From the NCBI GenBank assembly GCA_963675665.1, contig OY776510.1, positions 4,288,001 to 4,352,000 on the forward strand: a DNA stretch of 64,000 bases, in the 5' to 3' direction. Source of the DNA: Spirochaetia bacterium (GTDB lineage: Bacteria; Spirochaetota; Spirochaetia; UBA9216). The notes beneath the pieces were generated by a model. It was not told where the DNA came from and made no database searches. It saw only the letters and a program-made list of their open reading frames with translations. Positions 18,864 through 38,614 of the stretch are shown here, in pieces (positions within the stretch are counted from its first letter, which is position 1; each line of letters starts with the position of its first letter). The position numbers and the translations under genes are program-made.

Positions 18864-20099
18864 TTAAACCCCAGCCATTACAGATTTGTTAAAAACAGAC
18901 TCACAATGTTTTATCAAAGCGCTTATATCGTTACTGTAGATGTAATCCCATCCAAGCCACATAAACCCGTTTTCATCAGGAAGCCTGTTATCAATTGCCG
19001 GGTTTGTACTAGGGAAAAGCCCGTTATGAGAAAGGATACGACCGACTTCCTCCGATGCAAAGAAATCAATTACCGGCTGAAGTTTCCTGCTTTTTTCTTT
19101 TTTAGACAGCATAAAGATCGGACTGATAATTGCACCGTCTTTTGGCCATACAGCTTTCATGGGCCCGCCGTCTTTCACCATCTTTGTAAAGAAATTAGGC
19201 ATTATCGTAACAATCGGACGGTTCTCTTTCTTTCGATCGCTCCTGACCATCTGGGACGGATGAAGTGATTCCAGCAGGTTGCGCCCCAGTTTTGCAACAC
19301 CTTCATCTCCGTACATTTTATGAATATTCAGAAGGATACCGTTGAATAAATCAAAATCGCCGACAGGAAGAGAAACCCTGTTATTAAAAACCGGATCCAG
19401 AATATCTTCCCAGCTTTGAGGAACAGGCAAATCGCCCAGTTCCTTCATATTTACCAGAAAGACAGCCGGCACAACTCCGATTACGGAATAATGTTTTTCG
19501 GGATCCTTCAATCCGCCATCTTTGAACGACGAGTTGATTCCGGTAAATTTGACAGTATCCGCAAACACTCCCTGTTTTTTAAAACGGCCTATCAGATTTT
19601 TATCAAAAAACATATCAAATCCGGCTGATATAAAAAGATCCGGCAGCTCTGTGGCGTCATTTATCCCTTTTATATTATCTTCAACCCAGGAAAGACCCAT
19701 GGAAGCAGCTTTCAGTTCATGTTCTATAGTTACATCATTTTCCAGGGAATAAGATTTTATAAATCTGTTGAAACCTTCCAGCAGAGGAATACGAACCGGG
19801 CAAGGCAGCAGCCCGACGACCTTCAGGGCTTCTGCTCCTGCTGCTTTTTTATTGGCGGAAAGTGTTTCATCAACAGAATTATTCCCGGATTCGATTGCTG
19901 CAATTAAAAGTCCGGCAAAGCTGTCGTAATCCAGTTGTTTCAGTATTAAAGAGGTCCTGAGTGAAATTGTCTTTCCGAATTCTTCCCGCTTTTTTTCATC
20001 TCCCATATGGTTGAATCCATTGGAAGTAAATACAGGAATGGTTTCAGGGTATTTTTCGGCAATCTCAAAAAGTGTGCTGTCTTTTTCAAAATAATTCAT
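18864..20099 (-). CDS. DUF1858-like domain fused to a substrate-binding-protein fold, no signal peptide
   Basis: N-terminal TLFEIAEKYPETIPVF; LLPCPVRIP; PQSWEDILDP and WPKDGA typical of PotD/AfuA-like SBP folds. Confidence 0.75.
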   Translation of the reverse strand: MNYFEKDSTLFEIAEKYPETIPVFTSNGFNHMGDEKKREEFGKTISLRTSLILKQLDYDSFAGLLIAAIESGNNSVDETLSANKKAAGAEALKVVGLLPCPVRIPLLEGFNRFIKSYSLENDVTIEHELKAASMGLSWVEDNIKGINDATELPDLFISAGFDMFFDKNLIGRFKKQGVFADTVKFTGINSSFKDGGLKDPEKHYSVIGVVPAVFLVNMKELGDLPVPQSWEDILDPVFNNRVSLPVGDFDLFNGILLNIHKMYGDEGVAKLGRNLLESLHPSQMVRSDRKKENRPIVTIMPNFFTKMVKDGGPMKAVWPKDGAIISPIFMLSKKEKSRKLQPVIDFFASEEVGRILSHNGLFPSTNPAIDNRLPDENGFMWLGWDYIYSNDISALIKHCESVFNKSVMAGV

Positions 20100-21548: not shown

Positions 21549-22160
21549 GTGGATATACAGAATACTGTTTTTAATGAACTGTTCAGACAGGGAAGGCAAA
21601 TAGAACTTGCCAGGGGTGATGTACTGCACGATGTGCATGATGAATGCAAAGCACTGGGGAAAATTATCAAAGGCAAACTCAGACTTTCACGAATTTTGTC
21701 ATCCGGACGGGAAATAACTTTCAAGGAATTCATACCCGGCGAAATTTATGCGGAACTTCTTGTGTTTACCGGTGAGCCTTACCCGGGTTGGCTGATTGCA
21801 TCGGAAAACTCCACTGTTATAGAAGTTGAGTTCAGCCATGTTCTTGAACTCCTGGGCAACAGCGTCGCCTTAATTGAATTCATGTCCGGGGTTTCCAGAA
21901 AAACCAACCACCTGGCGAATAAAATAGAAATACTGTCTTTTAAAACGGTAAAACAAAAAATTGCCTTTTATCTGCTTACCGAAAACAATCCAGTTATTTC
22001 TTCAGTCTCCGGTTTATCCGATAACCTTGCCTGCTCACGCGAGGCCCTTTCCAGGGCTTTAAGTGAAATGGCGGGTAACGGAATAATCACCAGAGACGGC
22101 AAAGATATCCGAATAAAAGATAAAACAGAGCTTGAGAAACTGCTGCTGGGGCCTCTCTGA
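21549..22160 (+). CDS. Crp/Fnr-family regulator, HcpR-like
   Basis: cNMP-binding-like domain (GEIYAE..YP), SFKTVKQKIAFYL, HTH SREALSRALSEM. Confidence 0.85.
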   Translation: MDIQNTVFNELFRQGRQIELARGDVLHDVHDECKALGKIIKGKLRLSRILSSGREITFKEFIPGEIYAELLVFTGEPYPGWLIASENSTVIEVEFSHVLELLGNSVALIEFMSGVSRKTNHLANKIEILSFKTVKQKIAFYLLTENNPVISSVSGLSDNLACSREALSRALSEMAGNGIITRDGKDIRIKDKTELEKLLLGPL

Positions 22161-22346
22161 TAAATTATTTGCCGGTATAATAACTAATGCTGACCGGACA
22201 GACTATGTATTTCTTTTCTCTTTTCAGACATTTGCAAATTCTTCTTCACCGTTTTGTTTTTGCAGAACTACGCAATCAAATAATTTCTTTTCCTTTTTGA
22301 AAACTGCTTCCGCGAATAAACTGCAATTTTTAGAAGTCCCCATAAT

Positions 22347-22382
22347 AAAAATCCGCCGGAATAACGTCTGCTATTCCGGCGG
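22347..22382 (-). terminator. Intrinsic terminator downstream of the DJ-1/PfpI gene
   Basis: CCGCCGGAATA-N8-TATTCCGGCGG followed by ATTTTT on the minus strand. Confidence 0.75.
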
Positions 22383-22476
22383 TAAAACAAAAAGGAGGTT
22401 GACAGTCGTGCTGACGCGCGACTGTTTAAAGTTTCCTACAGAAACTTTAAAAGAAAAAAACCTATAACAACACAAG

Positions 22477-23793
22477 CTACTGGCGCAACAGTCCAATCGT
22501 CATTGCATCAACAAATTCGGGTAATTCGGGTGTTGTTCGGCCTGAGACTATATTGTGATCAACAGTTGCCGACCAGTCGGCACAGAATTCCCCACCCTGG
22601 GCTTCAAATCCCGGAACACATGAAATCCAGCCGGTAGATTTTCGTCCCTCTACTATTCCGGCCGCCGCTACAGCATTCGGACCGTGACACATAAAAGAAA
22701 TAACCTTTCCGGCGTCGTTTGCCTTTCTCAGAAACTCAAGTGGGTATCCGGCTTCTATCATATTCCATGGGCAAAAAGCGCCCGGAATCATAAGTCCGTC
22801 GAAATCATCCATATTCGTATCTTTCAGGTCCTGTATTTTATAAAGGTTATCAGGAATTTCCTGAAGCGGGACGGACATTCCGAAATTACCCTGAACCACA
22901 TCAAGGCCCAATAGCGGCGGACGGGCGCGCTTGCAGCCGGTGAATGTGCCTAAAAGTATATTGGCGCCGCGGTGCATGAATTCCAGCACGGGAACGGCAA
23001 TTTCGAAATCTTCAAAATCCCAGCCGGTTATCAGCATCATCCGCTTGCCTGCCAGAATTCCCTTTCTCGGGTCCTTGTAGCCGGGAGAAAATTGCCTGCA
23101 CAGAGCACTTACAAACTCAGGAGTATCTATCGTATCCTTTGCTGTCAAAATCCGGTCATCCATAACAACCCTGGTATTTAACTTGAAGTTTGATGTCTTT
23201 TTAAGAATATAATCAACCTGCTCATTTCCGGTGCAGTCTTTTCCAATAGTGAGCCCTACGGTCAGCATCGGAATGATGCCCCCTCCTATTCCGCCGATAA
23301 CAGCACCGTTGGAGTATGCATTTTTGAGAAGATCCTGTACTTCTTTTTCGGTGCACATGATATCTCCGGAAGGTCCGCCGGGAATAATTATTGCATCATA
23401 GTCTTTATAATCAGCGTCGTATAATGATTTTGATGAATCCGCCTTCTCTCCTCCTCCTACCGGAATCGGATCAACGGTAAGGCCCCACAGCCCTACTACA
23501 CCTTTTGTACGGATGTTCGGCCGGGTCCATTTCCAGGTTACCCTGTCTACCAGCAGAAACTCCAGCTTGCCTCCGAGCTCTCCGATATATGAAGCTATAT
23601 AATAAGCCTGAAAATCGCTGAATTCAGTAGCCACAACACAGCCGATCTTCTTTCCGGCCAGGGGACCAACATCCTTGGTACATCCGCCTTTCGGCCCGGT
23701 CCACAGGGTAGCGCCGTCTTTTTGCTGTATATCTATCCCTCTTGATTTTATAACTTCTATATAATCTGCAGACGGATCATAATTATTTCCCAT
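22477..23793 (-). CDS. Two-domain DJ-1/PfpI-family protein
   Basis: Domain 1 EFSDFQ..YDAIIIPGG; domain 2 DFEDFE..FDGLMIPGA..MCHGP; GGAGA SD. Confidence 0.85.
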   Translation of the reverse strand: MGNNYDPSADYIEVIKSRGIDIQQKDGATLWTGPKGGCTKDVGPLAGKKIGCVVATEFSDFQAYYIASYIGELGGKLEFLLVDRVTWKWTRPNIRTKGVVGLWGLTVDPIPVGGGEKADSSKSLYDADYKDYDAIIIPGGPSGDIMCTEKEVQDLLKNAYSNGAVIGGIGGGIIPMLTVGLTIGKDCTGNEQVDYILKKTSNFKLNTRVVMDDRILTAKDTIDTPEFVSALCRQFSPGYKDPRKGILAGKRMMLITGWDFEDFEIAVPVLEFMHRGANILLGTFTGCKRARPPLLGLDVVQGNFGMSVPLQEIPDNLYKIQDLKDTNMDDFDGLMIPGAFCPWNMIEAGYPLEFLRKANDAGKVISFMCHGPNAVAAAGIVEGRKSTGWISCVPGFEAQGGEFCADWSATVDHNIVSGRTTPELPEFVDAMTIGLLRQ

Positions 23794-23828
23794 CAAATCT
23801 TCTCCTTTGATTATCTTATAAAATAAAG

Positions 23829-23844
23829 CGCAATTATCATGCCA
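23829..23844 (-). promoter_or_regulatory. sigma54 (-24/-12) promoter of the DJ-1/PfpI gene
   Basis: TGGCATGATAATTGCG = GG-N10-GC, about 35 nt upstream of the ATG. Confidence 0.85.
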
Positions 23845-24119
23845 TTGAAAATGGATTTACAAATTTTTATAAACATGTAAAAAACAGGATACTCTAAAAA
23901 ACTGAAGCTTTCAGAGATTTATCCCGGATTTACAGAACGCTTATTTATTTCCTGATAAAGAAATAAATAAATTCCAGGGCATCTCTGACAACCCCGATTC
24001 AGGGATATCAGATATACGCGAATTATAATCATCTAAAATTTTAATATTATTTGATACACGGCAGGAGTTCCGGTTTTGTTCATTTTTTTTACATTCACGC
24101 ATTATTCTGTGTAAAAAAT

Positions 24120-25949
24120 CTACACAGGGACAGGATGCTCTTCATTTTGCGGCAGCATAATTATAAAGCGGCATCCGCCTTCAGACCTGTTCTCAACATT
24201 AATAGTCCCGCCGCTTTTGGTTATTATCGAATAGCACAATGAAAGCCCCAATCCTAGATTTCGGGAATCGGTGCTCTTTGTTGAAAAAAACGGGGTAAAA
24301 ACAGAATCCATCTTGTCAGCAGGCAACCCGGGACCATCATCCTCAATTGCAATTAATACCGAGCTTTTCCCGTCCTTTACGTTTGTCGAGGTAATAATTC
24401 TGACTTCACCGCCGTCGCCTGTTGCTTCACAGGCATTTTTAATGATATTTATTAACACCTGCCTCAGTTCATTTTTATTCATCTTCACAATAAGCGGATC
24501 TTCAAGTTTTTCAACACAAAAATTAATCTTTCCGTAAATATTATTTTTCCGGATCAGTTTAATATAGCTTTCCACCAGGCTGTTAACGTCTATTTCTCCG
24601 GCATTAATCATATTGGAATCGGAAAAGGTTACCAGGCGGGATACAATCTGTGAAATAAAATCAAGCTCTTCCTTTACATCGGCAAGAGGATCAACAAGAC
24701 TTTCATCATCGACCCGGGTACGAATATAGCGAATATAATTCATTACAATCTCAAGGGAATTATTAATCTCATGCCCCACCCCGGCGGCCAGCAAGCCTAT
24801 TGAAGAAAGATTTTCCGCCAGCATCATTTTCTTCTGCAGAGTATAATAATCCGTAACGTCCTCAATAATAATGATATGACCGACAATTGCAATTCCGTCA
24901 TATATGGGCACTATTTTCATTGTGTTCATTGAATGGTGCTCACCGATAGTAATAGGTACATCAAAAAATGAATGGCTCTCCTTTGATTCAAGGGAAGCCA
25001 TAATTAATTTATAAACTTCATTTTTCTGTTCGGCGAAAATAAAACTGATGTTCTTATACAGGTAATTCTCCCTGACTATTTCAAAATGACGTTCGAATGA
25101 TCGGTTTGCCATTATAATTTTATGACCCGGATCTATTACTGCAAGATTAATCGGAAGGGTATTTAGAATAGCCTCATTAAAACGCAGGAAATGATAAAAC
25201 TCTGACTGGAGTTCGGAAAGCTTTACCTTTTCCACAGTTTCAGTGTATGCAAGCCTGATCATGTTAACCTTGTCGATACCGTCAACCGGTCCGGAAAAAA
25301 GGACTTTCCCGTTACGCAGAATACTGACTTTATCTGCAAAATCATAAAGTTTTTCTATATCATGGGTTATAAAAACAATTGCTGTTCCCTTTCTTTTTAG
25401 CCTGTGAAAAACACCGGTAAAAATCCTTGAGAATTCCGAGCCCAGTTTAATAAAAATTTCATCGAGTACCAGAATATCCGGAGTCTTTTCAATCTGCCGG
25501 ATAAGTTCAACAGCTGTATACTCGGAAGATTTAAGCTCTTTAAGCTTCCGGTTTAAATCAATTCTGATACCGTACTTTTCCAATAATTTTTCAGCCTGTT
25601 TATAGACCCTTCCCCGCGGCAGGAAAAAACCTTTATATGCGATATCGTTATCGAATAACAGATATTCCCATACCAGAAAATTATCATTGGCGACACGATC
25701 CTGATGAACCATACAGGCTTTAATTTGCCCTTTTTTTACAATATGTCCTGATGAAGGCTTCAATACTTCGCTGATAATCTTGCCGAGCGTGGATTTACCG
25801 CAACCGTTCTCACCCAGAACCGCATGAATTTCACCGCGACGGACTATAAAAGTAAGATTTGACAGAACGTCGTTATAGTTGGTGCTGAAACTGATATTCT
25901 CAAGCCTCAGGATTTCATTTGCGGATCCGTCAGCCTTCGCTGATTCCAT
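24120..25949 (-). CDS. Cytoplasmic histidine kinase with N-terminal ABC-ATPase domain (ABC-PAS-HisKA-HATPase)
   Basis: GEIHAVLGENGCGKSTL, ILVLDE, FITHD, ADKVSILRNG; PAS-like ILNTLPINLAVID..MANRSF; H-box GVGHEINNSL; N box QVLINIIKNA; DDGPG, PFFSTK, GLGLSL; no TM segment. Confidence 0.88.
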   Translation of the reverse strand: MESAKADGSANEILRLENISFSTNYNDVLSNLTFIVRRGEIHAVLGENGCGKSTLGKIISEVLKPSSGHIVKKGQIKACMVHQDRVANDNFLVWEYLLFDNDIAYKGFFLPRGRVYKQAEKLLEKYGIRIDLNRKLKELKSSEYTAVELIRQIEKTPDILVLDEIFIKLGSEFSRIFTGVFHRLKRKGTAIVFITHDIEKLYDFADKVSILRNGKVLFSGPVDGIDKVNMIRLAYTETVEKVKLSELQSEFYHFLRFNEAILNTLPINLAVIDPGHKIIMANRSFERHFEIVRENYLYKNISFIFAEQKNEVYKLIMASLESKESHSFFDVPITIGEHHSMNTMKIVPIYDGIAIVGHIIIIEDVTDYYTLQKKMMLAENLSSIGLLAAGVGHEINNSLEIVMNYIRYIRTRVDDESLVDPLADVKEELDFISQIVSRLVTFSDSNMINAGEIDVNSLVESYIKLIRKNNIYGKINFCVEKLEDPLIVKMNKNELRQVLINIIKNACEATGDGGEVRIITSTNVKDGKSSVLIAIEDDGPGLPADKMDSVFTPFFSTKSTDSRNLGLGLSLCYSIITKSGGTINVENRSEGGCRFIIMLPQNEEHPVPV

Positions 25950-27258
25950 ACTTCTCCAGTTTGTTATAAAGTGTTTTCCGGCTCATTTTCAGAACTTCAG
26001 CCGTTTTTGTTTTATTATTGTCATTTTTCAGCAGAGTATTCAGAATCAGCTGTTTCTCCATGTCTTCCCTGATATTATCAGTTTGCTTTTCCGGAGTACT
26101 TCTGCGATGCTGCATTCCGAGCGGCAGGTCTTCGATTTTTATTTCTTCATCCGCAGCAACTGCACAAGCATACTGAATGGTGTTTTTCAGCTCCCGGATA
26201 TTTCCGGGCCATGTATATTCAAGAAAAAGATCTATCACCTCGGCAGATAATTTGCGTTTTTTAACCGTGCCTACACAATAATCGCTGATAAAATATTCGG
26301 ATAGTACAGGAATGTCCTCTTTGCGTTCCTTCAGCGGCGGCAATTTGATAACGGCAGTACTGAGCCTGTAAAAAAGGTCTTCCCGGAATTCCTTCCGTGC
26401 GATCATCTGTTCAAGGTTTTTGTTTGTTGCGGCAATGAAACGGACATCAACGGTAATCGTTTTATTACCACCTATCCGCCTTACTTCCTTGTTCTGCAGT
26501 GTTCTTAGAATCTTTGACTGAATTGCCAGCGACATATCGCCTATTTCATCCATAAACAGATTGCTGCCGTCGGCACGCTCGAATATTCCTTTATAATCTG
26601 AATTGGCCCCGGTATATGCACCTTTGTTATGACCGAAAAGTTCATTGTCAAGGATACTTTCCTGAAATGCCGCGCAGTTGATTTTTTGCAGACAGGATGT
26701 GCTTCTGGGAGAAATATCATGAATATAATCTGCCAGAACTTCTTTACCGGTTCCGTTTTCACCCAGAATAAGAATAGGCAAATCAGTAGCGGCAAGCTTT
26801 CTCGCCCTGGCCAGCGTTTTTATCAGATCCGGATTTTTTGTAATAAAATCTCCATGCTCATTACATACAGCAGTATCAACAGTATTGGTTGATTCGTTAT
26901 CGGCTATTGCCGATTCAACGACCCTCAGCAGCAGATCAAAATCAACCGGTTTTTGTATGTAATCGTAAGCTCCGATTTTTATCGTATCAACAGCGGATTC
27001 AATCGAACCGTATCCGGTAATCATTATTACCGGTATGTTTTTCTTCAGAGACATAATGTCCCGTAAAAGCCTGCGGCTGTCTTCATCACCAAGCATCAGA
27101 TCAAGCAGAATGAGATCAAAATTATTCAGTTTAACGCTTTCCAGCGCAGTTCTGCTGTCGTTTGCCCAAGAAACCTTGTACCCCAGCTGTTCGAAGTTTA
27201 CAGCCAGACTCTTGCATACCTTAACCTTGTCGTCAATTATGAAAATATTCCTGACCAT
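25930..27258 (-). CDS. NtrC-family sigma54-dependent response regulator (REC-AAA+-Fis HTH)
   Basis: IDD..LLDL REC; GENGTGKE; ELFGHNKGAYTGA; FMDEIG; FREDLFYRL; WPGNIREL; TAEVLKMSRKTLYNKL. Confidence 0.95.
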   Translation of the reverse strand: MVRNIFIIDDKVKVCKSLAVNFEQLGYKVSWANDSRTALESVKLNNFDLILLDLMLGDEDSRRLLRDIMSLKKNIPVIMITGYGSIESAVDTIKIGAYDYIQKPVDFDLLLRVVESAIADNESTNTVDTAVCNEHGDFITKNPDLIKTLARARKLAATDLPILILGENGTGKEVLADYIHDISPRSTSCLQKINCAAFQESILDNELFGHNKGAYTGANSDYKGIFERADGSNLFMDEIGDMSLAIQSKILRTLQNKEVRRIGGNKTITVDVRFIAATNKNLEQMIARKEFREDLFYRLSTAVIKLPPLKERKEDIPVLSEYFISDYCVGTVKKRKLSAEVIDLFLEYTWPGNIRELKNTIQYACAVAADEEIKIEDLPLGMQHRRSTPEKQTDNIREDMEKQLILNTLLKNDNNKTKTAEVLKMSRKTLYNKLEKYGISEG

Positions 27259-27416
27259 AATGTTACGTAATTATACAAACCTTCCTTTTAAACCGTATAA
27301 AATGGTGACACTGAATTATCAGGTTTAAACCCATATCTGTCAAGCAGGTATAATAAAACGACTTATCTCATTACAACACAATAATTTATATTTACACGTT
27401 TCGGCCGATAGCTCTT

Positions 27417-27432
27417 TGGCACGTCGATTGCT
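27417..27432 (+). promoter_or_regulatory. sigma54 (-24/-12) promoter of the dehydrogenase-GRE operon
   Basis: TGGCACG-TCGA-TTGCT, matching the consensus TGGCACG-N4-TTGCW. Confidence 0.9.
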
Positions 27433-27472
27433 TGTGTATTTTTGGTATAATAAATTAAATCGGAGGCTGATT

Positions 27473-28510
27473 TTGATTCCTGAAACAATGAAGGCTGGCG
27501 TGATGACGGAGCCTGGTAAAATAACTGTTCAAGAAGTAAAAACTCCTGAAATCGGAGATAATGATGTATTAATAAAGGTCAGGTACTGCGGTATCTGCGG
27601 AACCGACGTGCATATATTCAACGGCGTATACAGCAGAGATAAACTGCCGCTTATCCCCGGGCATGAATTTGTCGGAGAAATTGCCGCAATGGGAAAAAAC
27701 GTTACCAGGTATAAAATCGGCGACACAGTTACTGCCGATATAAATCTCAGCTGCGGATCATGCATCTACTGCCTTCAGAATAAACCGCTTTTATGCAGCG
27801 AGATGAGTCAGGTGGGAATTCATCAGAACGGCGCCTTTGCAGAATATGTCGCATTTCCGGCGGAGAGCGTTGTAGAACTGAATCCGGATACACCTAAAGA
27901 AAAACTTGCACTCATAGAGCCTGTATCATGCTGCGTAAGAACATTCCGGATGGCGGAGATATCTTTCGCAAAAAGCGTTGCAATAATAGGCGGCGGAAGC
28001 ATGGGCCTTCTTCTTTTACAAATGGCAAAGCTTGTCGGAGCCGCTCCGGTCATCATGGTGGCCCGCCGACAGGAAACCCTTGACCTTGCAGTTGAAATGG
28101 GCGCCGACGACACCGTGCTTATCGGCAATGGAGATACCGACAGGCTGAAAGAACTTACCGGAGGCCAGGGAGCTGATTTTGTTATCGAAGCAGTCGGCAG
28201 AAAAGAAACCTATGAGAAAGCATGTGAGATGCTGGGACCCGGCGGAAGGCTGGTTGCGTTCGGGATAATGGAACAGGGTGAAAAAACGCCGTTTGAGTTT
28301 TTTAACACTGTTTTGCTGGAACAAAGCTTAACCGGCTCATGCGCCGGAATGGGAATCGACTTTCATGAAGCAAAAAGGCTTGTTGAGTACGATCGTTTCG
28401 ACCTGGGCAGGTACAGCAACAATATTGTCCCGCTTGAGCGGATTGCCGACGGTTTCAACATGGCGATAAACGATAAAACGGTTTTGAAAGTAATCATTGA
28501 TATGGGATGA
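27473..28510 (+). CDS. Zn-dependent (MDR) polyol/sugar-alcohol dehydrogenase-like
   Basis: CGICGTD, PGHE, CGSCIYC..C, GGGSMG; TTG start 6 nt after GGAGG. Confidence 0.9.
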   Translation: MIPETMKAGVMTEPGKITVQEVKTPEIGDNDVLIKVRYCGICGTDVHIFNGVYSRDKLPLIPGHEFVGEIAAMGKNVTRYKIGDTVTADINLSCGSCIYCLQNKPLLCSEMSQVGIHQNGAFAEYVAFPAESVVELNPDTPKEKLALIEPVSCCVRTFRMAEISFAKSVAIIGGGSMGLLLLQMAKLVGAAPVIMVARRQETLDLAVEMGADDTVLIGNGDTDRLKELTGGQGADFVIEAVGRKETYEKACEMLGPGGRLVAFGIMEQGEKTPFEFFNTVLLEQSLTGSCAGMGIDFHEAKRLVEYDRFDLGRYSNNIVPLERIADGFNMAINDKTVLKVIIDMG

Positions 28511-28546
28511 TCCCTTAAAGTCAATCAGGATACAGGAGATAAAAAC

Positions 28547-29566
28547 TTGAAAGCATTGGTATGGACCGGCGCGGATCAGTCGGCAATTAGAGAAATTGAC
28601 AAACCTGAAATAAAAGAGGATGAAGTTCTGCTTAAGGTAAAGGCAACCGGCGTATGCGGAACCGATCTTACAATATTCAAGGGATATTTTCCCGCCCACA
28701 GGGCTGTTGCTCCCATGGCGCTCGGCCATGAAATGAGCGGGGTAATAGCCGAAAAAGGAAATGCCGTAACAGGCTATGAAGTCGGAGACAGGGTTATTGC
28801 CGATCCGCTGATTTCATGCGGGACCTGTTATAATTGCGTTAAGGGGCTCAGGCACATATGCAAAACGCTTGCCCTGTTCGGGGTGGACAGCGACGGATCC
28901 TTCGCTGAATATGTAAAGGTAAAAGCAGAAAAACTGTACCGGATACCCGATACGCTGTCATTTGAGAAAGCCGCGCTTTTTGAACCGCTCGCTGTCGCCG
29001 TACACGCAGTCAGGCGCTCAAAACTTGCAACCGGGGATACGGTAATGGTAATCGGCGGCGGGCCAATCGGAATTCTTATTGCAATGGTAGCCGAAACTGC
29101 CGGTGCCAGAACAATCATCGTATCCGAGATCCAGCAGTCGCGTCTGAATCTTCTTAATGAATACGGATTTAAAACAATCAATCCTGCAAAAATTGACAAT
29201 GAATCAATTATCAATAATTATTATGAAGGAGCAGGCCCGGAAGTTGTATTTGAAGTAACCGGAACAGCAGGCGGTTTTCAGGCGGCTATTGATATTGCCT
29301 GTTACAGGGGCCGCATCATGGAAGTCGGAGTGCCCAAAGGCGAGCAGACAATGGATATCCGGAAAGGCAACTTCGGTGAACTTGAAATTTTAGGTTCGCG
29401 TGTTTACGAACCGGTTGATATCAAAACAGCACTTAAAATAATTGATGATGCCCGTTATGACTGGGACAAACTGATCACAACATTTCCGCTGGAAAAGGGA
29501 CCGGAAGTTCTTACCGAACTTGCAAGCGGTAAAACATCATTAATGAAAGCAATCTTCACGTTGTAG
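28547..29566 (+). CDS. Zn-dependent (MDR) polyol/sugar-alcohol dehydrogenase-like
   Basis: GVCGTD, LGHE, CGTCYNC..C, EPLAVAVHA, GGGPIG; TTG start with GGAGA SD. Confidence 0.9.
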   Translation: MKALVWTGADQSAIREIDKPEIKEDEVLLKVKATGVCGTDLTIFKGYFPAHRAVAPMALGHEMSGVIAEKGNAVTGYEVGDRVIADPLISCGTCYNCVKGLRHICKTLALFGVDSDGSFAEYVKVKAEKLYRIPDTLSFEKAALFEPLAVAVHAVRRSKLATGDTVMVIGGGPIGILIAMVAETAGARTIIVSEIQQSRLNLLNEYGFKTINPAKIDNESIINNYYEGAGPEVVFEVTGTAGGFQAAIDIACYRGRIMEVGVPKGEQTMDIRKGNFGELEILGSRVYEPVDIKTALKIIDDARYDWDKLITTFPLEKGPEVLTELASGKTSLMKAIFTL

Positions 29567-29581
29567 TAGGAGGAATGATAA

Positions 29582-31993
29582 ATGGCGATAGAAGTAAGAT
29601 TAACCGATTCAGATGCAGCTAAAGCAGTCAAATGGCGCACTTCAAAGCTTAATGAAGAAGTACTGGCTGTCGAACCTGAAATCTGCATAGAACGGGCAAG
29701 GCTTGTTACCGAATCATATAAAAAAACCGAAACCGAACCGATGATAATCCGCAGGGCAAAAGCGCTGGCAAACGTTCTTGAAAATCAGACGATATTCATT
29801 CATAAAGATCAGCTTATTGCCGGTGTACAGGCAAGTAAACTCCGTTCATCTCCGCTTTTCCCTGAAACCGAAGCAAACTACCTGAAAAAGGAAATCGATC
29901 TCTTTGAAAAAAGGGAACAGGACAGACTGATTGTTCCGGCCGACGTAAGAAAAGAACTTCTGGAAGAAATTCTTCCGTACTGGAAAGGCAAATGTATAGA
30001 TGAGATTGCACTCGCTGCAATGCCCGAAAAGACCCGCGAGATTGCAATGCTCGAGAACCAGATTTTCTCGGTTGGAATACACCTTACCGGTTCAATCGGC
30101 CATATAATAGCCGATTACGACAGGGTAATTGCAAGAGGTTTTCTCGGCATCAGGGAAGACGCTGAAAATTATCTCAAAACCGTTGACTTTTCAGATCCTG
30201 AAAATACATCAAAGCTTCATTTCTATAAGGCTATCATAATCGTGTGCGATGCAGTGATGGCCTGGGGCAAACGGTATGCTGTTCTTGCGCGGGAAGAAGC
30301 AATAAAAGAAACGGATGAACGTTGGAAAAAAGAACTTGATACAATGGCCGACATCTGCGAACGTGTTCCGGCCCTTCCGGCCAGAAATTTCCGCGAAGCC
30401 GTGCAGGCTTTCTGGTTCTCACATCTGCTTTGTTATATTGAGCAGAACGGACTTGCTGTTTCGGTAGGGCGTTTTGATCAGTTTATGTACCCTTATTACA
30501 GGCAGGACATTGATAACGGCGCCATCACCAAAGATGAAGCCCAGGAGCTGTTGGAATGCCTGTGGATTAAATTCACCGAGGTTATGAGAGCATACGATTT
30601 TGAATGTGCAAAATATTATGCCGGATTTTCAATCTCCGAAAACCTTGTTCTGGGCGGAGTTACCCCGGACGGAAAAGATGCGACCAACGAACTTTCCTAC
30701 ATGTGTCTCGACGCAGAATCCCACACAAGCCTTTCGCAACCTAATCTCGCAGTTCGTGTTCACAACAATATGCCGGAGGATTTCTTCCGCAAAGCAGTCA
30801 GGCTTGCATCAACAGGCCGGACAAAACCCGAGTTTTTCAACGATTCAGTTGCGCTTCAGTCGCTGCTGTCGCTCGGTGTCCCTTTAAAAGATGCCCGCGA
30901 CTATTCTATTTCCGGATGTGTGGAAGCAGTTCCGCCGCATACAAACGGAATGACAAACGCAGCAATGTCGAATATTGCAAAGGCGCTTGAGCTTGCTCTT
31001 AACGACGGGGTATGCAGACTTACCGGAAAGCAGATAGGACCGAAAACCGGCGACCCGCGGGAGTTTAAATCCATTCGCGAGTTGCTTGATGCATTCAAAA
31101 ACCAGGTTGCCGCATATGTAAAAGAGATGGTGACCGCGCTTCAGTTTATCGAAAAAACCCATGCTCAATATTATCCGCTGCCATACTTCTCGCTGATTAT
31201 GGACGACTGTCTTGAACTGGGCCTGGATATAACCGAAGGCGGCGCCCGATATAATTATACAGGTCCGCAGGCGGTAGGTCTGTCGGATGTTGCTGATTCG
31301 CTGGCGGCCATAGGAAAATTCGTCTTTGACGACAAGAGCATTTCAATGGATCAGCTTCTTAAAGCTCTTAACGACAATTTTGAAGGAAGCGAAGAACTCC
31401 GCCAGCGTCTTTCGAACAAAGCGCCGAAATACGGCAACGACGATGATTACGTCGATTCACTCGCCGCTGAAGTTGTAAAAATCTACTGCGAAGAAGTTGA
31501 ACAGTATAAAAACACCCGCGGCGGCGTTTACCGTCCGGGCGTATATTCGGTATCTGCAAATGTTCCGCTGGGAATGCATGTCGGTGCAACACCGAACGGC
31601 CGGTTCAGCCGGGCGGCGCTCGGAGACGGCGTAGGACCCGTTCAGGCCTGCGATATAATGGGCCCCACCGCGGTTACCCGCTCCGTTGCAAAACTAAATC
31701 ATGAACTGGTAACAAACGGGACCCTTCTGAACCAGAAATTCAGCCGGGATCTAATGAACTCAGACGAAGGCAAACAGGGACTGGGCGATCTAATCCGAAG
31801 TTACTTTGATCTCGGCGGATGGCATATCCAGTTCAATGTAGTCGACGCAAAAGTATTGCGTGAAGCGCAGACCAAACCGCAGGACCACAAAGACCTTATT
31901 ATCAGGGTTGCCGGATACAGCGCTTTCTTTGTTGAACTCGACAGCAAGGTACAGGATGACATCATTAACAGAACTGAACAAAAGAAATTCTAA
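29582..31993 (+). CDS. Glycyl radical enzyme, PFL2/dehydratase-eliminase-like, substrate unknown
   Basis: 803 aa; GRFDQ; Cys loop SGCVE (single Cys, so not PFL); Gly loop IRVAGYSAFF; AGGAGG SD. Confidence 0.95.
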   Translation: MAIEVRLTDSDAAKAVKWRTSKLNEEVLAVEPEICIERARLVTESYKKTETEPMIIRRAKALANVLENQTIFIHKDQLIAGVQASKLRSSPLFPETEANYLKKEIDLFEKREQDRLIVPADVRKELLEEILPYWKGKCIDEIALAAMPEKTREIAMLENQIFSVGIHLTGSIGHIIADYDRVIARGFLGIREDAENYLKTVDFSDPENTSKLHFYKAIIIVCDAVMAWGKRYAVLAREEAIKETDERWKKELDTMADICERVPALPARNFREAVQAFWFSHLLCYIEQNGLAVSVGRFDQFMYPYYRQDIDNGAITKDEAQELLECLWIKFTEVMRAYDFECAKYYAGFSISENLVLGGVTPDGKDATNELSYMCLDAESHTSLSQPNLAVRVHNNMPEDFFRKAVRLASTGRTKPEFFNDSVALQSLLSLGVPLKDARDYSISGCVEAVPPHTNGMTNAAMSNIAKALELALNDGVCRLTGKQIGPKTGDPREFKSIRELLDAFKNQVAAYVKEMVTALQFIEKTHAQYYPLPYFSLIMDDCLELGLDITEGGARYNYTGPQAVGLSDVADSLAAIGKFVFDDKSISMDQLLKALNDNFEGSEELRQRLSNKAPKYGNDDDYVDSLAAEVVKIYCEEVEQYKNTRGGVYRPGVYSVSANVPLGMHVGATPNGRFSRAALGDGVGPVQACDIMGPTAVTRSVAKLNHELVTNGTLLNQKFSRDLMNSDEGKQGLGDLIRSYFDLGGWHIQFNVVDAKVLREAQTKPQDHKDLIIRVAGYSAFFVELDSKVQDDIINRTEQKKF

Positions 31994-31994
31994 T

Positions 31995-32915
31995 ATGTCG
32001 GATACAGGGGTTATCTTCAACATCCAGCGTTTCTCACTGCATGACGGCCCCGGAATGCGGACAGTCCTTTTTCTGAAAGGCTGTCCTCTTTCCTGCCTGT
32101 GGTGTTCCAACCCCGAGTCTCAGAACCCGGATGAAGAACTGCTTTATTACAGGAACAAGTGCATCCTCTGCGGAAGTTGCGTCAAAGCCGCCGGAGGGAA
32201 CGAACTGGCGGCAAGCGGAATCTCACTTTCCGAAGACGGGATTGTTTTTGACCGGGAAAAACTTGATGTAGCTGCAGCAGCTGAAACCTGTCCGACCGGA
32301 GCGCTGGAGATAATTGGCCGAAAAACCAGCGCCGAAGAAATTATGCCGATGCTGATGCGCGACATTACATATTTCAGGCGCTCCGGCGGCGGAATTACGC
32401 TTTCAGGAGGAGAGCCGACGATACAGACAGGGTTCTGCCGGGAGCTGCTGCTTCGGCTACGTGAACTGGGAGTGAATACAGCTGTCGAGACATGCGGGTA
32501 CCGAAAGTGGGATCCTTTTCTGCGCGCGATAGAACCGGCAGATTTGATTTTATACGATCTTAAAGCAGCAGATTCTGAAGTGCACAAATCCGGCACAGGA
32601 GTCGGCAACGAAATTATACTTGAAAATTTTCTGAAGCTTGTGCCTGTCAAGAATTTGACGGCCCGAATTCCGGTAATACCCGGATTTAATGCGACTGATG
32701 AGAATTTCAAACAGACTGCCGCTTTTATTCTGAACAGCGGGTTCAAAGGCGAAGTCCATCTTCTACCCTATCACAGTTACGGTTCAGGAAAGTATAAAGC
32801 GATGCAGCAGGAATACCAACTTGCGGGGACAGAACCTCCGACCGAAGAACAACTGAAAAAATGGGCCTATGAATTTGAATCAGGAGGTCTGACAGTTAAA
32901 ATACACAAGCACTGA
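31995..32915 (+). CDS. Glycyl-radical enzyme activating protein (radical SAM)
   Basis: HDGPGMRT, CPLSCLWC, ferredoxin-like insert, SGGEP, VETCG, LLPYH. Confidence 0.95.
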   Translation: MSDTGVIFNIQRFSLHDGPGMRTVLFLKGCPLSCLWCSNPESQNPDEELLYYRNKCILCGSCVKAAGGNELAASGISLSEDGIVFDREKLDVAAAAETCPTGALEIIGRKTSAEEIMPMLMRDITYFRRSGGGITLSGGEPTIQTGFCRELLLRLRELGVNTAVETCGYRKWDPFLRAIEPADLILYDLKAADSEVHKSGTGVGNEIILENFLKLVPVKNLTARIPVIPGFNATDENFKQTAAFILNSGFKGEVHLLPYHSYGSGKYKAMQQEYQLAGTEPPTEEQLKKWAYEFESGGLTVKIHKH

Positions 32916-32932
32916 TATTAATCGCTGTCTTG

Positions 32933-34576
32933 TCAGAGGCCCTTTTCAAATACGATCTTGCCGTCAATCATGGTAAGGTCAACCTCTACCCTGTTCAGTT
33001 TGCCTGTCGGGATCGAGGTGATATCTTCAGAAAGAACAATCATATCCGCCAGTTTTCCTTTTTCAAGGCTCCCTTTGATATCTTCTTCAAAAGACAGATA
33101 TGCACCGTGCAGAGTAGCACAGCGAACAGCCTCGGCAACAGAAATACACTGCGTCTGATCCAGCTGAATTTCATTTGTCCTGTTATACCGGTTAACCGCT
33201 CCGTCTATAGTGTGAATCCCTATAGGTCCGGACGGGTAATCGCTTGCAATAGACACCTTGATTCCGGCATCAAGCATGCTCCTGAGGGCAATAAGATACT
33301 TCATCCGCTCGCCGTAAAAACGGGCGTAATTGGCGCCTATTGTGGTGAGCATCCCCGGATTCACAGTCGGGCATATATTCATCTTTGCCATTCGATCTAT
33401 AAGGTCCTGGTCGCATAGCGTGCAGTGCTCTATGCGGTGCCGCAAATCGGGTCTCGGGTTATCTTTAAAGGCTTTCTCATAACCTTCAACCATGAATTCC
33501 ACAGCCAGGTCTCCTATCGCATGCGCAGTTGCCTGGCATTCGGCGTCGTTGATCTCTTTTATATATTCTGTCACCTCTTCACGTTCCCAGCCTCGTTCTC
33601 GCGGAAGTTCAGGATTATGACTGTAAGGCTCACGGGTTGCGCATGACGGGCCGCCGGATCCGCCGTCTATCATAAATTTGCAGGAGCCTATCCTGAAATG
33701 TTCATCTCCGAGCCCGGTAGTAAAACCGAGCGATAAAAAGTGAGCATTGTCTTCCTTTGAGAAGGGTTTACCAAAGATACTGTGAAGAAGCATATATGAA
33801 CGAATTTTAAACTTGCGCTCGCGGCAAAGCTTCTGCATTATATGGTATGAAGGCCTGTCGCACTCGCCTGCGTCATGCACCGAAGTAATTCCTGCGCGCA
33901 GTGCAATATCATGTGATTTCATGGCGGCTTTAGCCTGCTGTTCCTCGGTGTAATCTACCATCCCCCACAGCTTGAAATGGGTATGCCCCCGAACCATTCC
34001 CGTCAGCTTTCCGTCTATAACCTCAACTTCGTCTTCAGGATATTTTGCGGCGTCTTCCGGTCCGTAAACGTCCAGGTATTCAAGGGCTTTGGTATTATAC
34101 ATGCAGATATGTCCGCCTCCGTGCATACAGTGGACCGGGTTGTCGGGCGCTATTGCATCAAGTTCTTCTATTGAAGGGTGTCTTTTTTCGGGAAGCAGCA
34201 GCGGTTCATAACCCATCATCGACACCCATTGCCCGGGTTGCTTCAGGGCAACCGCTTTTTTCAGCAGGTCAAGCATTTCGGCAAGACTCCTGCAATTTGA
34301 CGCTGAAGTATTAATCATTGCAGAATCAAGTTCGGTCCCGATAAATCCTGCAAGAATCGGATGAAAATGAGAATCGATTATGCCGGGCATCAGTGTCCGA
34401 CCTGCAAGATCTATCTGTTCGGTTTTATCGTCGATATATTCATCAAGACCGTCGTTTGTTCCGACATAAACAATCCTGTTGCCCTTCACGGCAAGAGCTT
34501 CCGCTATTACGTCACCGGCGTTAACAGTAAGAACTCTTCCGTTTCTGAAAACCGTATCAGCAAATCCAAGTCTCAT
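32933..34576 (-). CDS. Amidohydrolase_3 family protein (YtcJ/NfdA-like)
   Basis: PGIIDSHFH, KFMIDG, HAIGD, RIEH, SDYP, KGSLEKGKLAD; start MRLGFAD. Confidence 0.9.
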   Translation of the reverse strand: MRLGFADTVFRNGRVLTVNAGDVIAEALAVKGNRIVYVGTNDGLDEYIDDKTEQIDLAGRTLMPGIIDSHFHPILAGFIGTELDSAMINTSASNCRSLAEMLDLLKKAVALKQPGQWVSMMGYEPLLLPEKRHPSIEELDAIAPDNPVHCMHGGGHICMYNTKALEYLDVYGPEDAAKYPEDEVEVIDGKLTGMVRGHTHFKLWGMVDYTEEQQAKAAMKSHDIALRAGITSVHDAGECDRPSYHIMQKLCRERKFKIRSYMLLHSIFGKPFSKEDNAHFLSLGFTTGLGDEHFRIGSCKFMIDGGSGGPSCATREPYSHNPELPRERGWEREEVTEYIKEINDAECQATAHAIGDLAVEFMVEGYEKAFKDNPRPDLRHRIEHCTLCDQDLIDRMAKMNICPTVNPGMLTTIGANYARFYGERMKYLIALRSMLDAGIKVSIASDYPSGPIGIHTIDGAVNRYNRTNEIQLDQTQCISVAEAVRCATLHGAYLSFEEDIKGSLEKGKLADMIVLSEDITSIPTGKLNRVEVDLTMIDGKIVFEKGL

Positions 34577-34589
34577 TTCTATCCATCCT

Positions 34590-36443
34590 TTATTTAAAAT
34601 CAAGAGCCAGCGATCCGTCCCAGTTTTCCGGGGGTTCATCCCTGAATTTCCTGCAGCGCTCGCTGAACATCATGGACAGCCAGTCATCCTTTTTAACACC
34701 AAGAACCTTCCGGAAATAATCTTCAGCTGATTCCCAGTTGCCGAGTTTGTACTGCTTCAATCCTTTATTATACCAGTCTTTTGTTTCCGTAGTATCAGGG
34801 TCATTCGGCATTATAAGAGAAAAAAGCCTTGTAGCAGACAGTTTTCCTTTAACCTTGACGATATCGACCTCCCGCAATTCCATTGAATCATCTATATGCG
34901 CCGACATCTCTTCGGATATAAGAATCTTTCTTTTATAATGCTTTGTCAGACCTTCCAGTCTTGATGCAATATTGACTGTATCTCCTATTGCAGTGTAATC
35001 AAATTTCTCAGAAGATCCAATATTACCAACAATCGCATCGCCTTCATGAAGACCTATTCCGATATCATAACCTGTAGCGGGCAGATTCAATTCATCAAGC
35101 TGAACTTTCGACATGGCTCCAATCATCTCCGAAGCTGCTTTAACAGCCCTCATCGCATTATCTTCATAACTTATGGGAGCCCCGAAAATGGCGAAGATTG
35201 CATCTCCGATAAACTTGTCTATTGAGCCCCCGTATTTTTTTATAATATCAACCATTATGGTAAAATGGCTGTTCAGGAACCTGACTACAGCTTCAGCTGA
35301 ATTGTTCTCGCTGATGGATGTGAATGATCTGATATCCGAAAAAAGAACTACAATACTCCTTTTCTCTCCAACCAGAAGCGCTTCATCGCTCTGCTTCTCG
35401 ACAAGATCATTTATTATTTCACGCGGGACAAACTTTCCAAAAACATTCCTTATGCCCTCTTCCATTCTCCTCGCCTGATTATACAGAAGAGAATTTTCAA
35501 CCACAATTGCAGAACCTTCGGAAAAAACTTCAATATTGGAACTGATTTTTTCTGAAAAATAGTTATTTATGAAGCTGCCGGCATGAATGCTCCCTACAGG
35601 TTCACCGCCTTTTCCCGTAAGCAGAAATGTAACGTAAGAACTTATTTTTCTGTTATCAAGCCGGATCTTGTCAAAATCGGTCCTGCCGTCAACACCGAAA
35701 ATTTTAGTCCTGAGATCTTTAAAGCCGAGTTCCGGAAATTCTTCAGCAAAATCAGGGTAACATACTTTGATGAACTCATCGCAATCAACCTTCAAAACAG
35801 ATTCCGACGGCAAAATATATGCTTCAGGGATTCTGTTGTTTCTGATCATTATAACCCCGATATCCGCCTCACATACCATGGGTAAGAGGCTCAGTATATC
35901 TTCGCATGTTTTTTCCAGGGAACCTATGGATCGTCCTACATTCCCTATCATGTTAAGGATTGTAGATTTAAAAAGTTCGGAATCAAAAAGGGATCCTATA
36001 AGCTCAAAGACGCTGTCGCTGTTTATCGAAGCTCCGTCGACGGTTATTAACTCCCTGTCCGGGGCTTCATGCCCGACAAGCCCGGCAACCTCTGAAAGCA
36101 GGATTTCAATATTATCAAAATCCTTGTTTACAAAGGAATCTGCTCCTGAAGTAATAGCCCAGTACTTGTCCCTGTCGCCGGAGAGGCTTGTATGCATAAT
36201 AATCGGAATTTTACAGATTTCACGCCGACTTTTCAGTAACCTGCTTGCCTGGTAGCCCTGCATAAGCGGCATTTCCACATCCATTACAATCAGATCCGGT
36301 ATTTCTTTATAGGCAGCAATAATACCCTCTACACCGTCGGCGGCCCGCGACACTGTATAACCTTCATTTCGCAGTGTCTGTTCAAGAACGCCGGCAACCA
36401 GGTCGGAATCATCTATAACCAGTATTTTATATTTCCTCTCCAT
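34590..36443 (-). CDS. Response-regulated class III adenylate cyclase (REC, GAF-like, cyclase)
   Basis: REC IDD..MDVEMP; LFSDIRSFT, KFIGDA, DYTAIGDTVNIASRLE (Lys/Asp ATP-specifying residues). Confidence 0.9.
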   Translation of the reverse strand: MERKYKILVIDDSDLVAGVLEQTLRNEGYTVSRAADGVEGIIAAYKEIPDLIVMDVEMPLMQGYQASRLLKSRREICKIPIIMHTSLSGDRDKYWAITSGADSFVNKDFDNIEILLSEVAGLVGHEAPDRELITVDGASINSDSVFELIGSLFDSELFKSTILNMIGNVGRSIGSLEKTCEDILSLLPMVCEADIGVIMIRNNRIPEAYILPSESVLKVDCDEFIKVCYPDFAEEFPELGFKDLRTKIFGVDGRTDFDKIRLDNRKISSYVTFLLTGKGGEPVGSIHAGSFINNYFSEKISSNIEVFSEGSAIVVENSLLYNQARRMEEGIRNVFGKFVPREIINDLVEKQSDEALLVGEKRSIVVLFSDIRSFTSISENNSAEAVVRFLNSHFTIMVDIIKKYGGSIDKFIGDAIFAIFGAPISYEDNAMRAVKAASEMIGAMSKVQLDELNLPATGYDIGIGLHEGDAIVGNIGSSEKFDYTAIGDTVNIASRLEGLTKHYKRKILISEEMSAHIDDSMELREVDIVKVKGKLSATRLFSLIMPNDPDTTETKDWYNKGLKQYKLGNWESAEDYFRKVLGVKKDDWLSMMFSERCRKFRDEPPENWDGSLALDFK

Positions 36444-36447
36444 TTTA

Positions 36448-38613: not shown

Positions 38614-38614
38614 A

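Follow-up and report, generated by a model that had tools for sequence, protein, structure and literature searches.

We analysed a 64,000-nucleotide stretch of the genome of a Spirochaetia bacterium (contig OY776510.1, positions 4,288,001 to 4,352,000; hereafter the window), which carries at positions 22477-32915 a cluster of seven genes encoding a tandem DJ-1/PfpI protein, a histidine kinase fused to an ATP-binding cassette (ABC) domain, an NtrC-type activator, two zinc-dependent medium-chain dehydrogenase/reductase enzymes (MDR1 and MDR2), a glycyl radical enzyme (GRE) and a GRE activase. On balance, this cluster probably belongs to a sigma-54 regulon of three operons through which an imported sugar or sugar alcohol would be fermented with no sugar kinase involved. 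The window would hold the regulatory genes and the radical-enzyme operon of this regulon, and the third operon lies beyond its end.

Candidate sigma-54 promoters and a shared dyad link three operons

Gene content was established from an open reading frame (ORF) listing and from family profile scans (Pfam and NCBIfam) of the window, and was compared with the remainder of the organism's own 5.15-Mb genome (G000) and with two congeners (G007 and G009). All of the genes listed by a first-pass annotation of the cluster are present. The cluster is syntenic in both congeners, with protein identities of 64-87%, and the plus-strand genes MDR1-MDR2-GRE-activase are tightly packed, with gaps of 36, 15 and 1 nt. 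The two sigma-54 promoter strings reported by the same annotation, one upstream of the DJ-1 gene and the other upstream of MDR1, were found where it placed them and recur in matching positions in G007 and G009. Each lies approximately 35-55 nt 5' of a start codon, and together they flank the activator-kinase operon. The GG-N10-GC spacing in a TGGCA..TTGC context, the presence of a gene downstream and a single rpoN in the genome are consistent with both being sigma-54 promoters. Their number in the window is unremarkable, with 2 matches compared with a mean of 1.06 in shuffled sequence and at least 2 matches in 27 of 100 shuffles of the 64 kb; support for these promoters therefore comes from their position, rarity in the genome and conservation, and not from the window count alone. 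The strict pattern TGGCA[CT]-N5-TTGC[ATG] occurs at 20 sites in the genome, three of which precede operons of the proposed regulon, and all three are conserved in the own genome, G007 and G009.

The third of these promoters belongs to an operon that, in the congeners, comes directly after the GRE cluster and encodes an aldehyde:ferredoxin oxidoreductase (AOR), a split transketolase and the binding protein, permease and ATPase of a CUT2-type importer. In the own genome the orthologues of this operon (80-91% identical), encoding a CUT2 (ribose-type) ABC ATPase, permease and binding protein together with the split transketolase and the AOR, are found at G000 4366738-4374212, 46 kb downstream of the GRE gene and 14.7 kb past the end of the window. 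A perfect sigma-54 promoter, TGGCATGTTTATTGCA, stands at the head of the operon, 27 nt 5' of the ATPase start codon, and is kept in all three genomes. No activator gene is present within 18 kb around this remote operon in the own genome, and G007 and G009 contain one activator gene each in the 20 kb examined.

An alignment of the sequences that precede the DJ-1 and ABC promoters in the own genome, G007 and G009 revealed an invariant block, TTACACA...TGT..AAAAA.T.AAC, which corresponds to the dyad TTTTACA-N16-17-TGTAAAA, located 150-270 nt upstream of the -24 element and identical down to the flanking TAAAC at both promoters in every genome. In six loci searched (approximately 130 kb) the dyad pattern occurs at exactly these 6 sites and at no others, and genome-wide its strict form has 7 matches, two of which are the DJ-1 and ABC operon sites. 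A strict copy of the TTTTACACA dyad is absent from the dehydrogenase promoter, where a one-base variant, TTATACA-N16-(C/T)GTATAA, is present instead approximately 130 nt upstream in all three genomes. The consensus over the three operons is TT(T/A)TACA-N16-17-(T/C)GT(A/G)(A/T/G)AA. A relaxed pattern that accepts both forms has 7 distinct sites genome-wide, against approximately 7 expected by chance, and 3 of these are the regulon sites; no dyad is found near any of the other 17 strict sigma-54 sites in the genome. The neighbouring activator is predicted to bind these dyads.

The claim that the glycyl-radical locus is self-contained is not borne out by this arrangement, since the third operon, which carries a sigma-54 promoter and the same dyad, adjoins the cluster in two congeners and lies 46 kb away here. 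A transporter and a C-C cleaving step thus do exist, outside positions 22477-32915; within these limits the statement that the locus is without microcompartment shell, kinase, aldolase or transporter genes holds. The three operons together encode no sugar kinase, isomerase, aldolase or phosphotransferase system (PTS) gene. The DJ-1 gene does form part of the unit, as it has a sigma-54 promoter to itself and the common dyad upstream.

The GRE represents a clade with an unusual pocket

The GRE matches PF02901 (774 bits) and PF01228 (107 bits) and passes TIGR01774, the model of the PFL2/glycerol-dehydratase subfamily (855 bits, cut-off 678). It reaches no NCBIfam equivalog cut-off among the models for characterised GREs, scoring 721 bits with HpfG (cut-off 1000), 684 with HpsG (1000), 702 with HypD (1100), 633 with CutC (1050), 686 with PRK09983 (1109), 481 with indoleacetate decarboxylase (1100), 356 with 4-hydroxyphenylacetate (4-HPA) decarboxylase (1150) and 180 with PFL (994). 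Amongst solved structures the best match is glycerol dehydratase (1r8w, 713 bits), followed by a glycyl radical protein (9rco, 666 bits), diol dehydratase (5i2a, 666 bits), PflD (8yjo, 589 bits), HypD (6vxc, 586 bits), YbiW (8id7, 517 bits) and IslA (7kq3, 494 bits). The glycyl loop, RVAGYSAF with Gly778, and the Cys loop, SGCVEAV with Cys446, conform to the RVxG[FWY] glycyl loop and catalytic Cys loop that we take to be the defining motifs of GREs. In GRE 1,2-eliminases a Glu two residues past the thiyl Cys is the general base, and the corresponding Cys446-Val-Glu448 is present here and conserved in 64 of 64 clade members and in 52 of 52 more distant relatives. His174 and Tyr655, the equivalents of His164 and Tyr640, are kept in the alignments together with Cys446-x-Glu448 and Gly778. 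The residues His281/Ser282/Asp447, common to 1r8w, 9rco and 5i2a, are replaced by Leu291/Ala292/Asn459, and Tyr339, Asn156 and Trp445 of glycerol dehydratase by Ser, Ile and Met; NGHSIS has become NGLAVS and the GWHD segment NGMTNA, so that the diol-dehydratase pocket is not preserved. The sequence thus suggests eliminase-type chemistry in a pocket unlike that of every enzyme compared. With no equivalog cut-off reached and the diol-dehydratase pocket residues replaced, the earlier description of a sigma-54-controlled unit around a GRE that matches no characterised enzyme stands. The activase scores 324 bits with TIGR02494 (cut-off 174) and carries the N-terminal CxxxCxxC motif as CPLSCLWC.

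A protein search returned 4661 relatives at E ≤1e-100 among 7998 scored candidates, and 118 full-length sequences were aligned. We define the clade as the 64 clusters that are at least 60% identical and a wider group as the 52 clusters at 45-59%. Residues I166, H174, L291, E353, C446, E448, T458, N459, Y655 and G778 are identical in all 64 clusters, and A292 and S352 in 62 of them. Clade members, which carry generic names throughout, are found in Spirochaetota, Clostridium tyrobutyricum, C. algifaecis and Aerophobetes as well as in metagenomes. In the wider group Asn459 is found in 47 of 52 clusters, with differences at other positions; this group takes in a 56% identical paralogue from the same genome. 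Judging from the fixed residues, this is a tight clade, probably with one function.

The paralogue just mentioned (locus L185, G000 1961500-1981400) has nearly the same pocket signature. Its neighbours are three MDR genes, a short-chain dehydrogenase/reductase (SDR) gene, a CUT2 importer, its own ABC-fused kinase and activator, and a short GH88-like ORF (254 aa, profile positions 72-256 of 352). A sigma-54-like promoter, TGGTACAGGAATTGCA, is located 5' of the binding-protein gene beside this kinase-activator pair.

An ABC-fused sensor kinase and its NtrC-type partner

Family scans confirmed that a central NtrC-type activator is paired with an ABC-fused kinase, as the first-pass annotation had described. 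The kinase consists of a single N-terminal ABC nucleotide-binding domain followed by PAS, an H-box (GHEINN) and HATPase, and the domain scan detected no membrane segment, as would be expected of a cytoplasmic protein. Its first 250 residues align with the first half of CUT2 ATPases (YtfR, LsrA, MglA and XylG). Among 5.8 billion proteins searched, ABC_tran and HATPase_c were listed together in 32 clusters, of which those with a named source are from spirochaetes. All 32 members share the Walker A residues G46, G51 and K52 and the Walker B residue D163, at least 90% keep E164 and the H-loop His196, and every one has a degenerate LSGGQ signature. The activator belongs to the NtrC class by its PF00072, PF00158 (213 bits) and PF02954 matches, and contains the Walker A sequence GENGTGKE, a GAYTGA loop (a Phe-to-Tyr variant of GAFTGA) and a Fis-type helix-turn-helix.

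The genome encodes eight ABC-fused kinases, each beside an NtrC-type paralogue, and the other seven pairs are all located within 3 kb of CUT2 ABC genes. We infer that the ABC-like domain makes the kinase responsive to its cognate importer or to the nucleotide state. A literature search that covered titles and the beginnings of abstracts outside subscription journals returned no paper on the ABC_tran plus HATPase_c architecture and no description of the GRE clade, of this gene set or of its gene context. Several of the seven outside pairs are near strict sigma-54 promoter matches.

Dehydrogenases, DJ-1 protein and a proposed pathway

MDR1 and MDR2 both contain ADH_N and ADH_zinc_N, with the catalytic Cys/His-Glu set and the four structural-zinc Cys residues kept. 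Neither reaches an equivalog cut-off (Tdh, 201-230 bits against cut-offs of 380-458), and their closest solved relatives are the putative zinc-binding dehydrogenase 4ej6 and threonine, xylitol, sorbitol and butanediol dehydrogenases. By the motif rules for cofactor choice in MDR enzymes, VARR after the second beta-strand suggests that MDR1 is of NADP(H) type, and a VSE motif suggests that MDR2 is of NAD(H) type. The DJ-1 protein (PF01965, 119 bits) has a Cys-His nucleophile elbow, MCHGP, in its second domain and Gly at that place in the first; among solved structures it comes closest to the two-domain plant DJ-1D proteins 3uk7 and 4ofw. The binding protein of the third operon, encoded on the minus strand at G000 4370629-4371609, reaches no NCBIfam equivalog cut-off for specificity, and PDB names and NCBIfam designate it no further than ribose-type.

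In the mechanism that we propose, the kinase would report on its cognate importer or on the substrate of that importer and phosphorylate the activator, which would bind the dyads and open the three promoters. The substrate would then enter through the CUT2 ABC system, the MDR enzymes would interconvert polyol and ketose or aldehyde, and the GRE would dehydrate a hydroxylated intermediate larger than glycerol through radical C-O elimination. Transketolase would split the ketose and pass a C2 unit to pentose-phosphate metabolism, the AOR would oxidise the aldehyde product to the acid with reduction of ferredoxin, and the DJ-1 protein would remove reactive oxo-aldehydes. The redox conversion, radical elimination to a carbonyl and detoxification envisaged by the first-pass annotation are plausible within this scheme. 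A bolder version, which we offer tentatively as a possibility, is that the regulon represents an undescribed, kinase-free fermentation of a sugar alcohol or rare sugar, in which a new GRE dehydratase and the two MDRs reshape the carbon chain, transketolase hands C2 units to sugar phosphates, a tungsten-type AOR takes the aldehyde and a new class of sensor kinase reads importer activity. Nothing supports the further suggestion of a polyol-amine substrate, and the neighbouring amidohydrolase gene (32933-34639) is not kept in the congeners.

Genomic company and distribution of the GRE clade

We compared seven informative loci with a GRE at least 64% identical, namely those of the own genome, G007 and G009, and four others, L001, L005, L082 and L189, in which identity is 64-69%. 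An MDR2-like gene, the most constant neighbour of the GRE, is present at all seven, as is a CUT2 ABC importer, which is remote in the own genome; an MDR1-like gene is present at five and an activase was found at five, and the split transketolase and the AOR are each present at four. L001, from a Clostridia metagenome-assembled genome, contains two MDRs, two split transketolases, an AOR, two SDRs, a cupin and a CUT2 importer. At L005 (Aerophobetes) the GRE is joined by another GRE, two MDRs, a xylose-isomerase-like TIM barrel and a CUT2 importer, and at L082 by its activase, one MDR, a CUT2 importer and a DeoR regulator. At L189, from another spirochaete family, only one MDR and a CUT2 importer accompany the GRE. 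The DJ-1 gene and the ABC-fused kinase were found within this genus only.

The GRE clade is rare and patchy. It is present in three of five congeners, and no orthologue turned up in a congener whose genome is 100% complete; in a sample of the phylum, 3 of 401 genomes, the own genome included, have a close orthologue. A scan of a genome collection identified only L001 and L005 at 64% identity or above, and among the best 80 loci kept from a metagenome scan there was one close relative (L082, 64%). The G+C content of the GRE operon (window 28001-34000) is 0.465-0.49, compared with 0.38-0.44 in the flanks, and this, with the missing orthologue in the complete congener, fits an accessory or transferred unit.

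Two of these loci have further features. In L001 (4517-8696) the regulator is an AraC-type response regulator accompanied by a short soluble His_kinase protein (336 aa), and a separate 465-aa protein has ABC_tran as its sole Pfam match; the kinase and this protein may be a split version of the ABC-domain sensor. In L005 (12-5543) the members of a tandem pair of GRE genes share 53% and 64% identity with the query, and between them the helix-turn-helix and C-terminal halves of an IclR regulator occupy separate ORFs (2067-2420 and 2430-2966), which may reflect a frameshift.

Weighing the regulon against other explanations

Several observations count against a three-operon regulon of the kind proposed. 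Binding of the dyads by the activator is deduced from sequence, and the dyad pattern was derived from the regulon sites themselves, so that the genome-wide count is not independent; the independent evidence is the conservation in 9 of 9 promoter regions. The variant dyad at the dehydrogenase promoter differs by one base and sits in the activator's own leader, and may serve autoregulation instead. No public RNA runs are listed for this DNA. With respect to the substrate, the binding protein is no more than ribose-type, scoring 145 bits with RbsB (cut-off 337), and the diol-binding roles given to the pocket residues are those ascribed to glycerol dehydratase in the literature. Regulators vary by lineage, the DJ-1 gene and the ABC-fused kinase are confined to this genus, and transketolase and AOR accompany the clade at only four of seven loci; together with the sparse company of the GRE at L189, this means that the core may be a simpler dehydratase/reductase pair. 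A further consideration is whether the two halves are separate units, the activator driving only its two adjacent promoters and the third operon answering to one of the seven paralogous activators. The existence of eight similar activator-kinase pairs in the genome, the 46-kb distance and the variant form of the dehydrogenase dyad would be compatible with such a division, which we nevertheless regard as very unlikely: the same dyad, including the flanking TAAAC, precedes the DJ-1 and ABC promoters in three genomes and is missing near the other 17 strict sigma-54 sites, the operons adjoin in G007 and G009 with a single activator gene each in the 20 kb examined, and there is no activator gene near the remote operon.

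Within a three-operon regulon the role of the GRE can also be read differently. It is unlikely, in our view, to be a small-diol dehydratase that has diverged and acts on a C2/C3 fragment after transketolase cleavage, with ethylene glycol, 1,2-propanediol or glycerol as its substrate. Such an enzyme would account for 1r8w and then the diol dehydratase 5i2a as the best solved matches and for the retained Cys-x-Glu loop and His174. It could also serve a scheme such as tetritol to erythrulose (MDR), glycolaldehyde (transketolase), ethylene glycol (MDR), acetaldehyde (GRE) and acetate (AOR), which by reasoning uses every regulon enzyme and is NADH-neutral, with MDR1 resembling the NADP(H) type and MDR2 the NAD(H) type. 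It is at odds with the replacement of His281/Ser282/Asp447 of 1r8w, 9rco and 5i2a, given that every one of the 64 clusters has Leu291 and Asn459 and 62 have Ala292, with several bulky pocket residues that are now smaller (Tyr339 to Ser, Trp445 to Met) and thus point to a larger substrate, and with L189, which has the GRE, the importer and one MDR but no transketolase. Distinctly less probable still, we consider, is a C-O lyase that opens the ring of an unphosphorylated anhydro-sugar or similar cyclic ether, a transporter-fed counterpart of E. coli YbiW/PflD. These are sugar-acting GREs of the same superfamily (8yjo, 8id7), the importer is of monosaccharide type and the regulon is without a sugar kinase or PTS gene, yet the GRE scores higher with the diol dehydratases than with YbiW/PflD, falls well short of the PRK09983 cut-off (686 against 1109 bits), and a 1-deoxy-ketose product would not be a transketolase donor. 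We therefore favour dehydration of an intermediate larger than glycerol within the three-operon regulon.

Comparison with known systems

The closest characterised enzymes are the B12-independent glycerol dehydratase DhaB1/DhaB2 of Clostridium butyricum (1r8w) and the 1,2-propanediol dehydratase of Roseburia inulinivorans (5i2a), which share with the GRE the fold, length, RVAGY and Cys-x-Glu loop, the His164/Tyr640 equivalents and a dedicated activase gene that follows the GRE gene. They differ from it in the pocket, where His281, Ser282, Asp447, Tyr339, Asn156 and Trp445 correspond to Leu, Ala, Asn, Ser, Ile and Met here, and in gene context: the locus has no microcompartment genes and no 1,3-propanediol-type iron-containing alcohol dehydrogenase, and the partners are instead two MDRs, a sugar importer, transketolase and AOR. 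The E. coli GREs for anhydro-hexitol 6-phosphates, YbiW/PflD (8id7, 8yjn, 8yjo), are likewise encoded within a carbohydrate uptake locus, with lower similarity (517-589 bits). They are reportedly PTS-fed, with phosphorylated substrates, and followed by an aldolase; the present system has an ABC importer, no kinase or PTS, and transketolase in place of the aldolase.

As a pathway, the system comes closest to the sulfo-transketolase route by which sulfoquinovose is degraded, where isethionate sulfite-lyase is one of the GREs that act downstream (reviewed in PMC9594981 and PMC12890257). The common plan, predicted for the present system, is that an unusual ketose is cleaved by a split transketolase in an anaerobe and that the C2/C3 product goes to a GRE. 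The GRE studied here is neither IslA-like (7kq3, 494 bits) nor HpsG/HpfG-like (HpfG, 721 against 1000), and the locus contains no sulfo-sugar isomerase or sulfite-handling genes; it is also unlike the microcompartment diol systems and the PTS-fed YbiW/PflD.

The regulatory pair resembles NtrBC, AtoSC and ZraSR in the kinase core (H-box, N, G1 and G2), the receiver-AAA+-helix-turn-helix activator and the upstream dyads, located here 115-270 nt from GG-N10-GC promoters, and departs from them in having a kinase without a membrane or periplasmic sensor and with a single ABC nucleotide-binding domain as its input. The DJ-1 protein shares with Arabidopsis DJ-1D (4ofw, 3uk7) the tandem DJ-1/PfpI arrangement in one chain and the Cys-His elbow of the C-terminal domain; the match is weak (85-88 bits), the first domain is without the Cys, and the bacterial gene is under its own sigma-54 promoter. 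The Arabidopsis DJ-1D proteins are said to be of the glyoxalase III type.

GREs are oxygen-sensitive and carry out much of the difficult chemistry of anaerobes, and most of their clades are without an assigned substrate. The clade described here now has a fixed pocket signature, defined partner enzymes and a dedicated regulator with recognisable promoters and predicted binding sites, so its substrate can be sought by ligand screening of the binding protein, induction assays and enzyme reconstitution. If the transketolase/AOR logic is true, polyol carbon would enter central metabolism without the action of a kinase. The kinase with an ABC-ATPase input, present in eight copies of which the other seven are beside a CUT2 importer, may represent an unstudied form of transport-transcription coupling.

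Layout of the cluster and neighbouring genes

Positions of the features are collected in Table 1. The start of MDR1 is probably the TTG at 27473, directly after a GGAGG, since in the three genomes the five codons that precede the ATG at 27488 differ solely at wobble positions.

Table 1. Features of the GRE cluster and related kinase-activator pairs (window coordinates unless G000 is given)
Feature	Position	Strand	Remarks
Terminator-like hairpin	22353..22382	-	13-bp stem and T-run; ~95 nt beyond DJ-1 stop codon
Tandem DJ-1/PfpI protein, 439 aa	22477-23796	-	ORF and family scan
Predicted sigma-54 promoter (-24/-12) of DJ-1 gene, TGGCATGATAATTGCG	23844..23829	-	Conserved in G007 (L182 3991) and G009 (L183 17901)
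Upstream dyad TTTTACA-N16-TGTAAAA, predicted activator binding site	24087..24116	-	Begins 3 nt past kinase stop codon; ~270 nt upstream of DJ-1 promoter
Histidine kinase, ABC_tran + PAS + HATPase_c, 609 aa	24120-25949	-	Family scan
NtrC-type activator, receiver + Sigma54_activat + HTH_8	25930-27258	-	Overlaps kinase gene by 20 nt
Kinase-activator pair of the cluster (eighth pair)	24120-27258		
Variant dyad TTATACA-N16-CGTATAA	27271..27300	.	~130 nt upstream of MDR1 promoter, within activator gene 5' leader; conserved in G007 and G009
Sigma-70-like promoter of activator-kinase operon, TTGACA-17-GATAAT (11/12)	27315..27343	-	Best such match in 22000-33500; conserved
Predicted sigma-54 promoter of MDR1-MDR2-GRE-activase operon, TGGCACGTCGATTGCT	27417..27432	+	Conserved in G007 and G009
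MDR1, polyol/threonine dehydrogenase group	27473-28510 (ORF from 27416)	+	Likely start TTG 27473
MDR2	28547-29566	+	
GRE, 803 aa, PFL-like + Gly_radical, PFL2/eliminase type	29582-31993	+	
GRE activase, radical SAM CxxxCxxC + ferredoxin-like insert	31995-32915	+	ATG 1 nt past GRE stop codon
Seven paralogous kinase-activator pairs	G000 67804-70905, 592368-595473, 1048712-1051787, 1952435-1955574, 1974796-1977911, 4803883-4806988, 4864593-4867728		

Downstream of the DJ-1 gene, a 111-aa ORF on the plus strand (22132-22467) has no family match and contains the strong terminator hairpin of the DJ-1 gene, which is convergent with it; it is probably not a gene. On the other side of the cluster, the minus strand at 34590-38667 encodes a response regulator with a fused adenylate/guanylate cyclase domain and TPR, which adjoins a CheA-like hybrid kinase (Hpt, HATPase, CheW and receiver); these genes are not beside the cluster in the congeners. 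A 411-aa protein with DUF1858 and an SBP_bac_6 solute-binding domain is encoded on the minus strand at 18864-20099, and its neighbours are cupin, Rrf2 and NifX-like genes.

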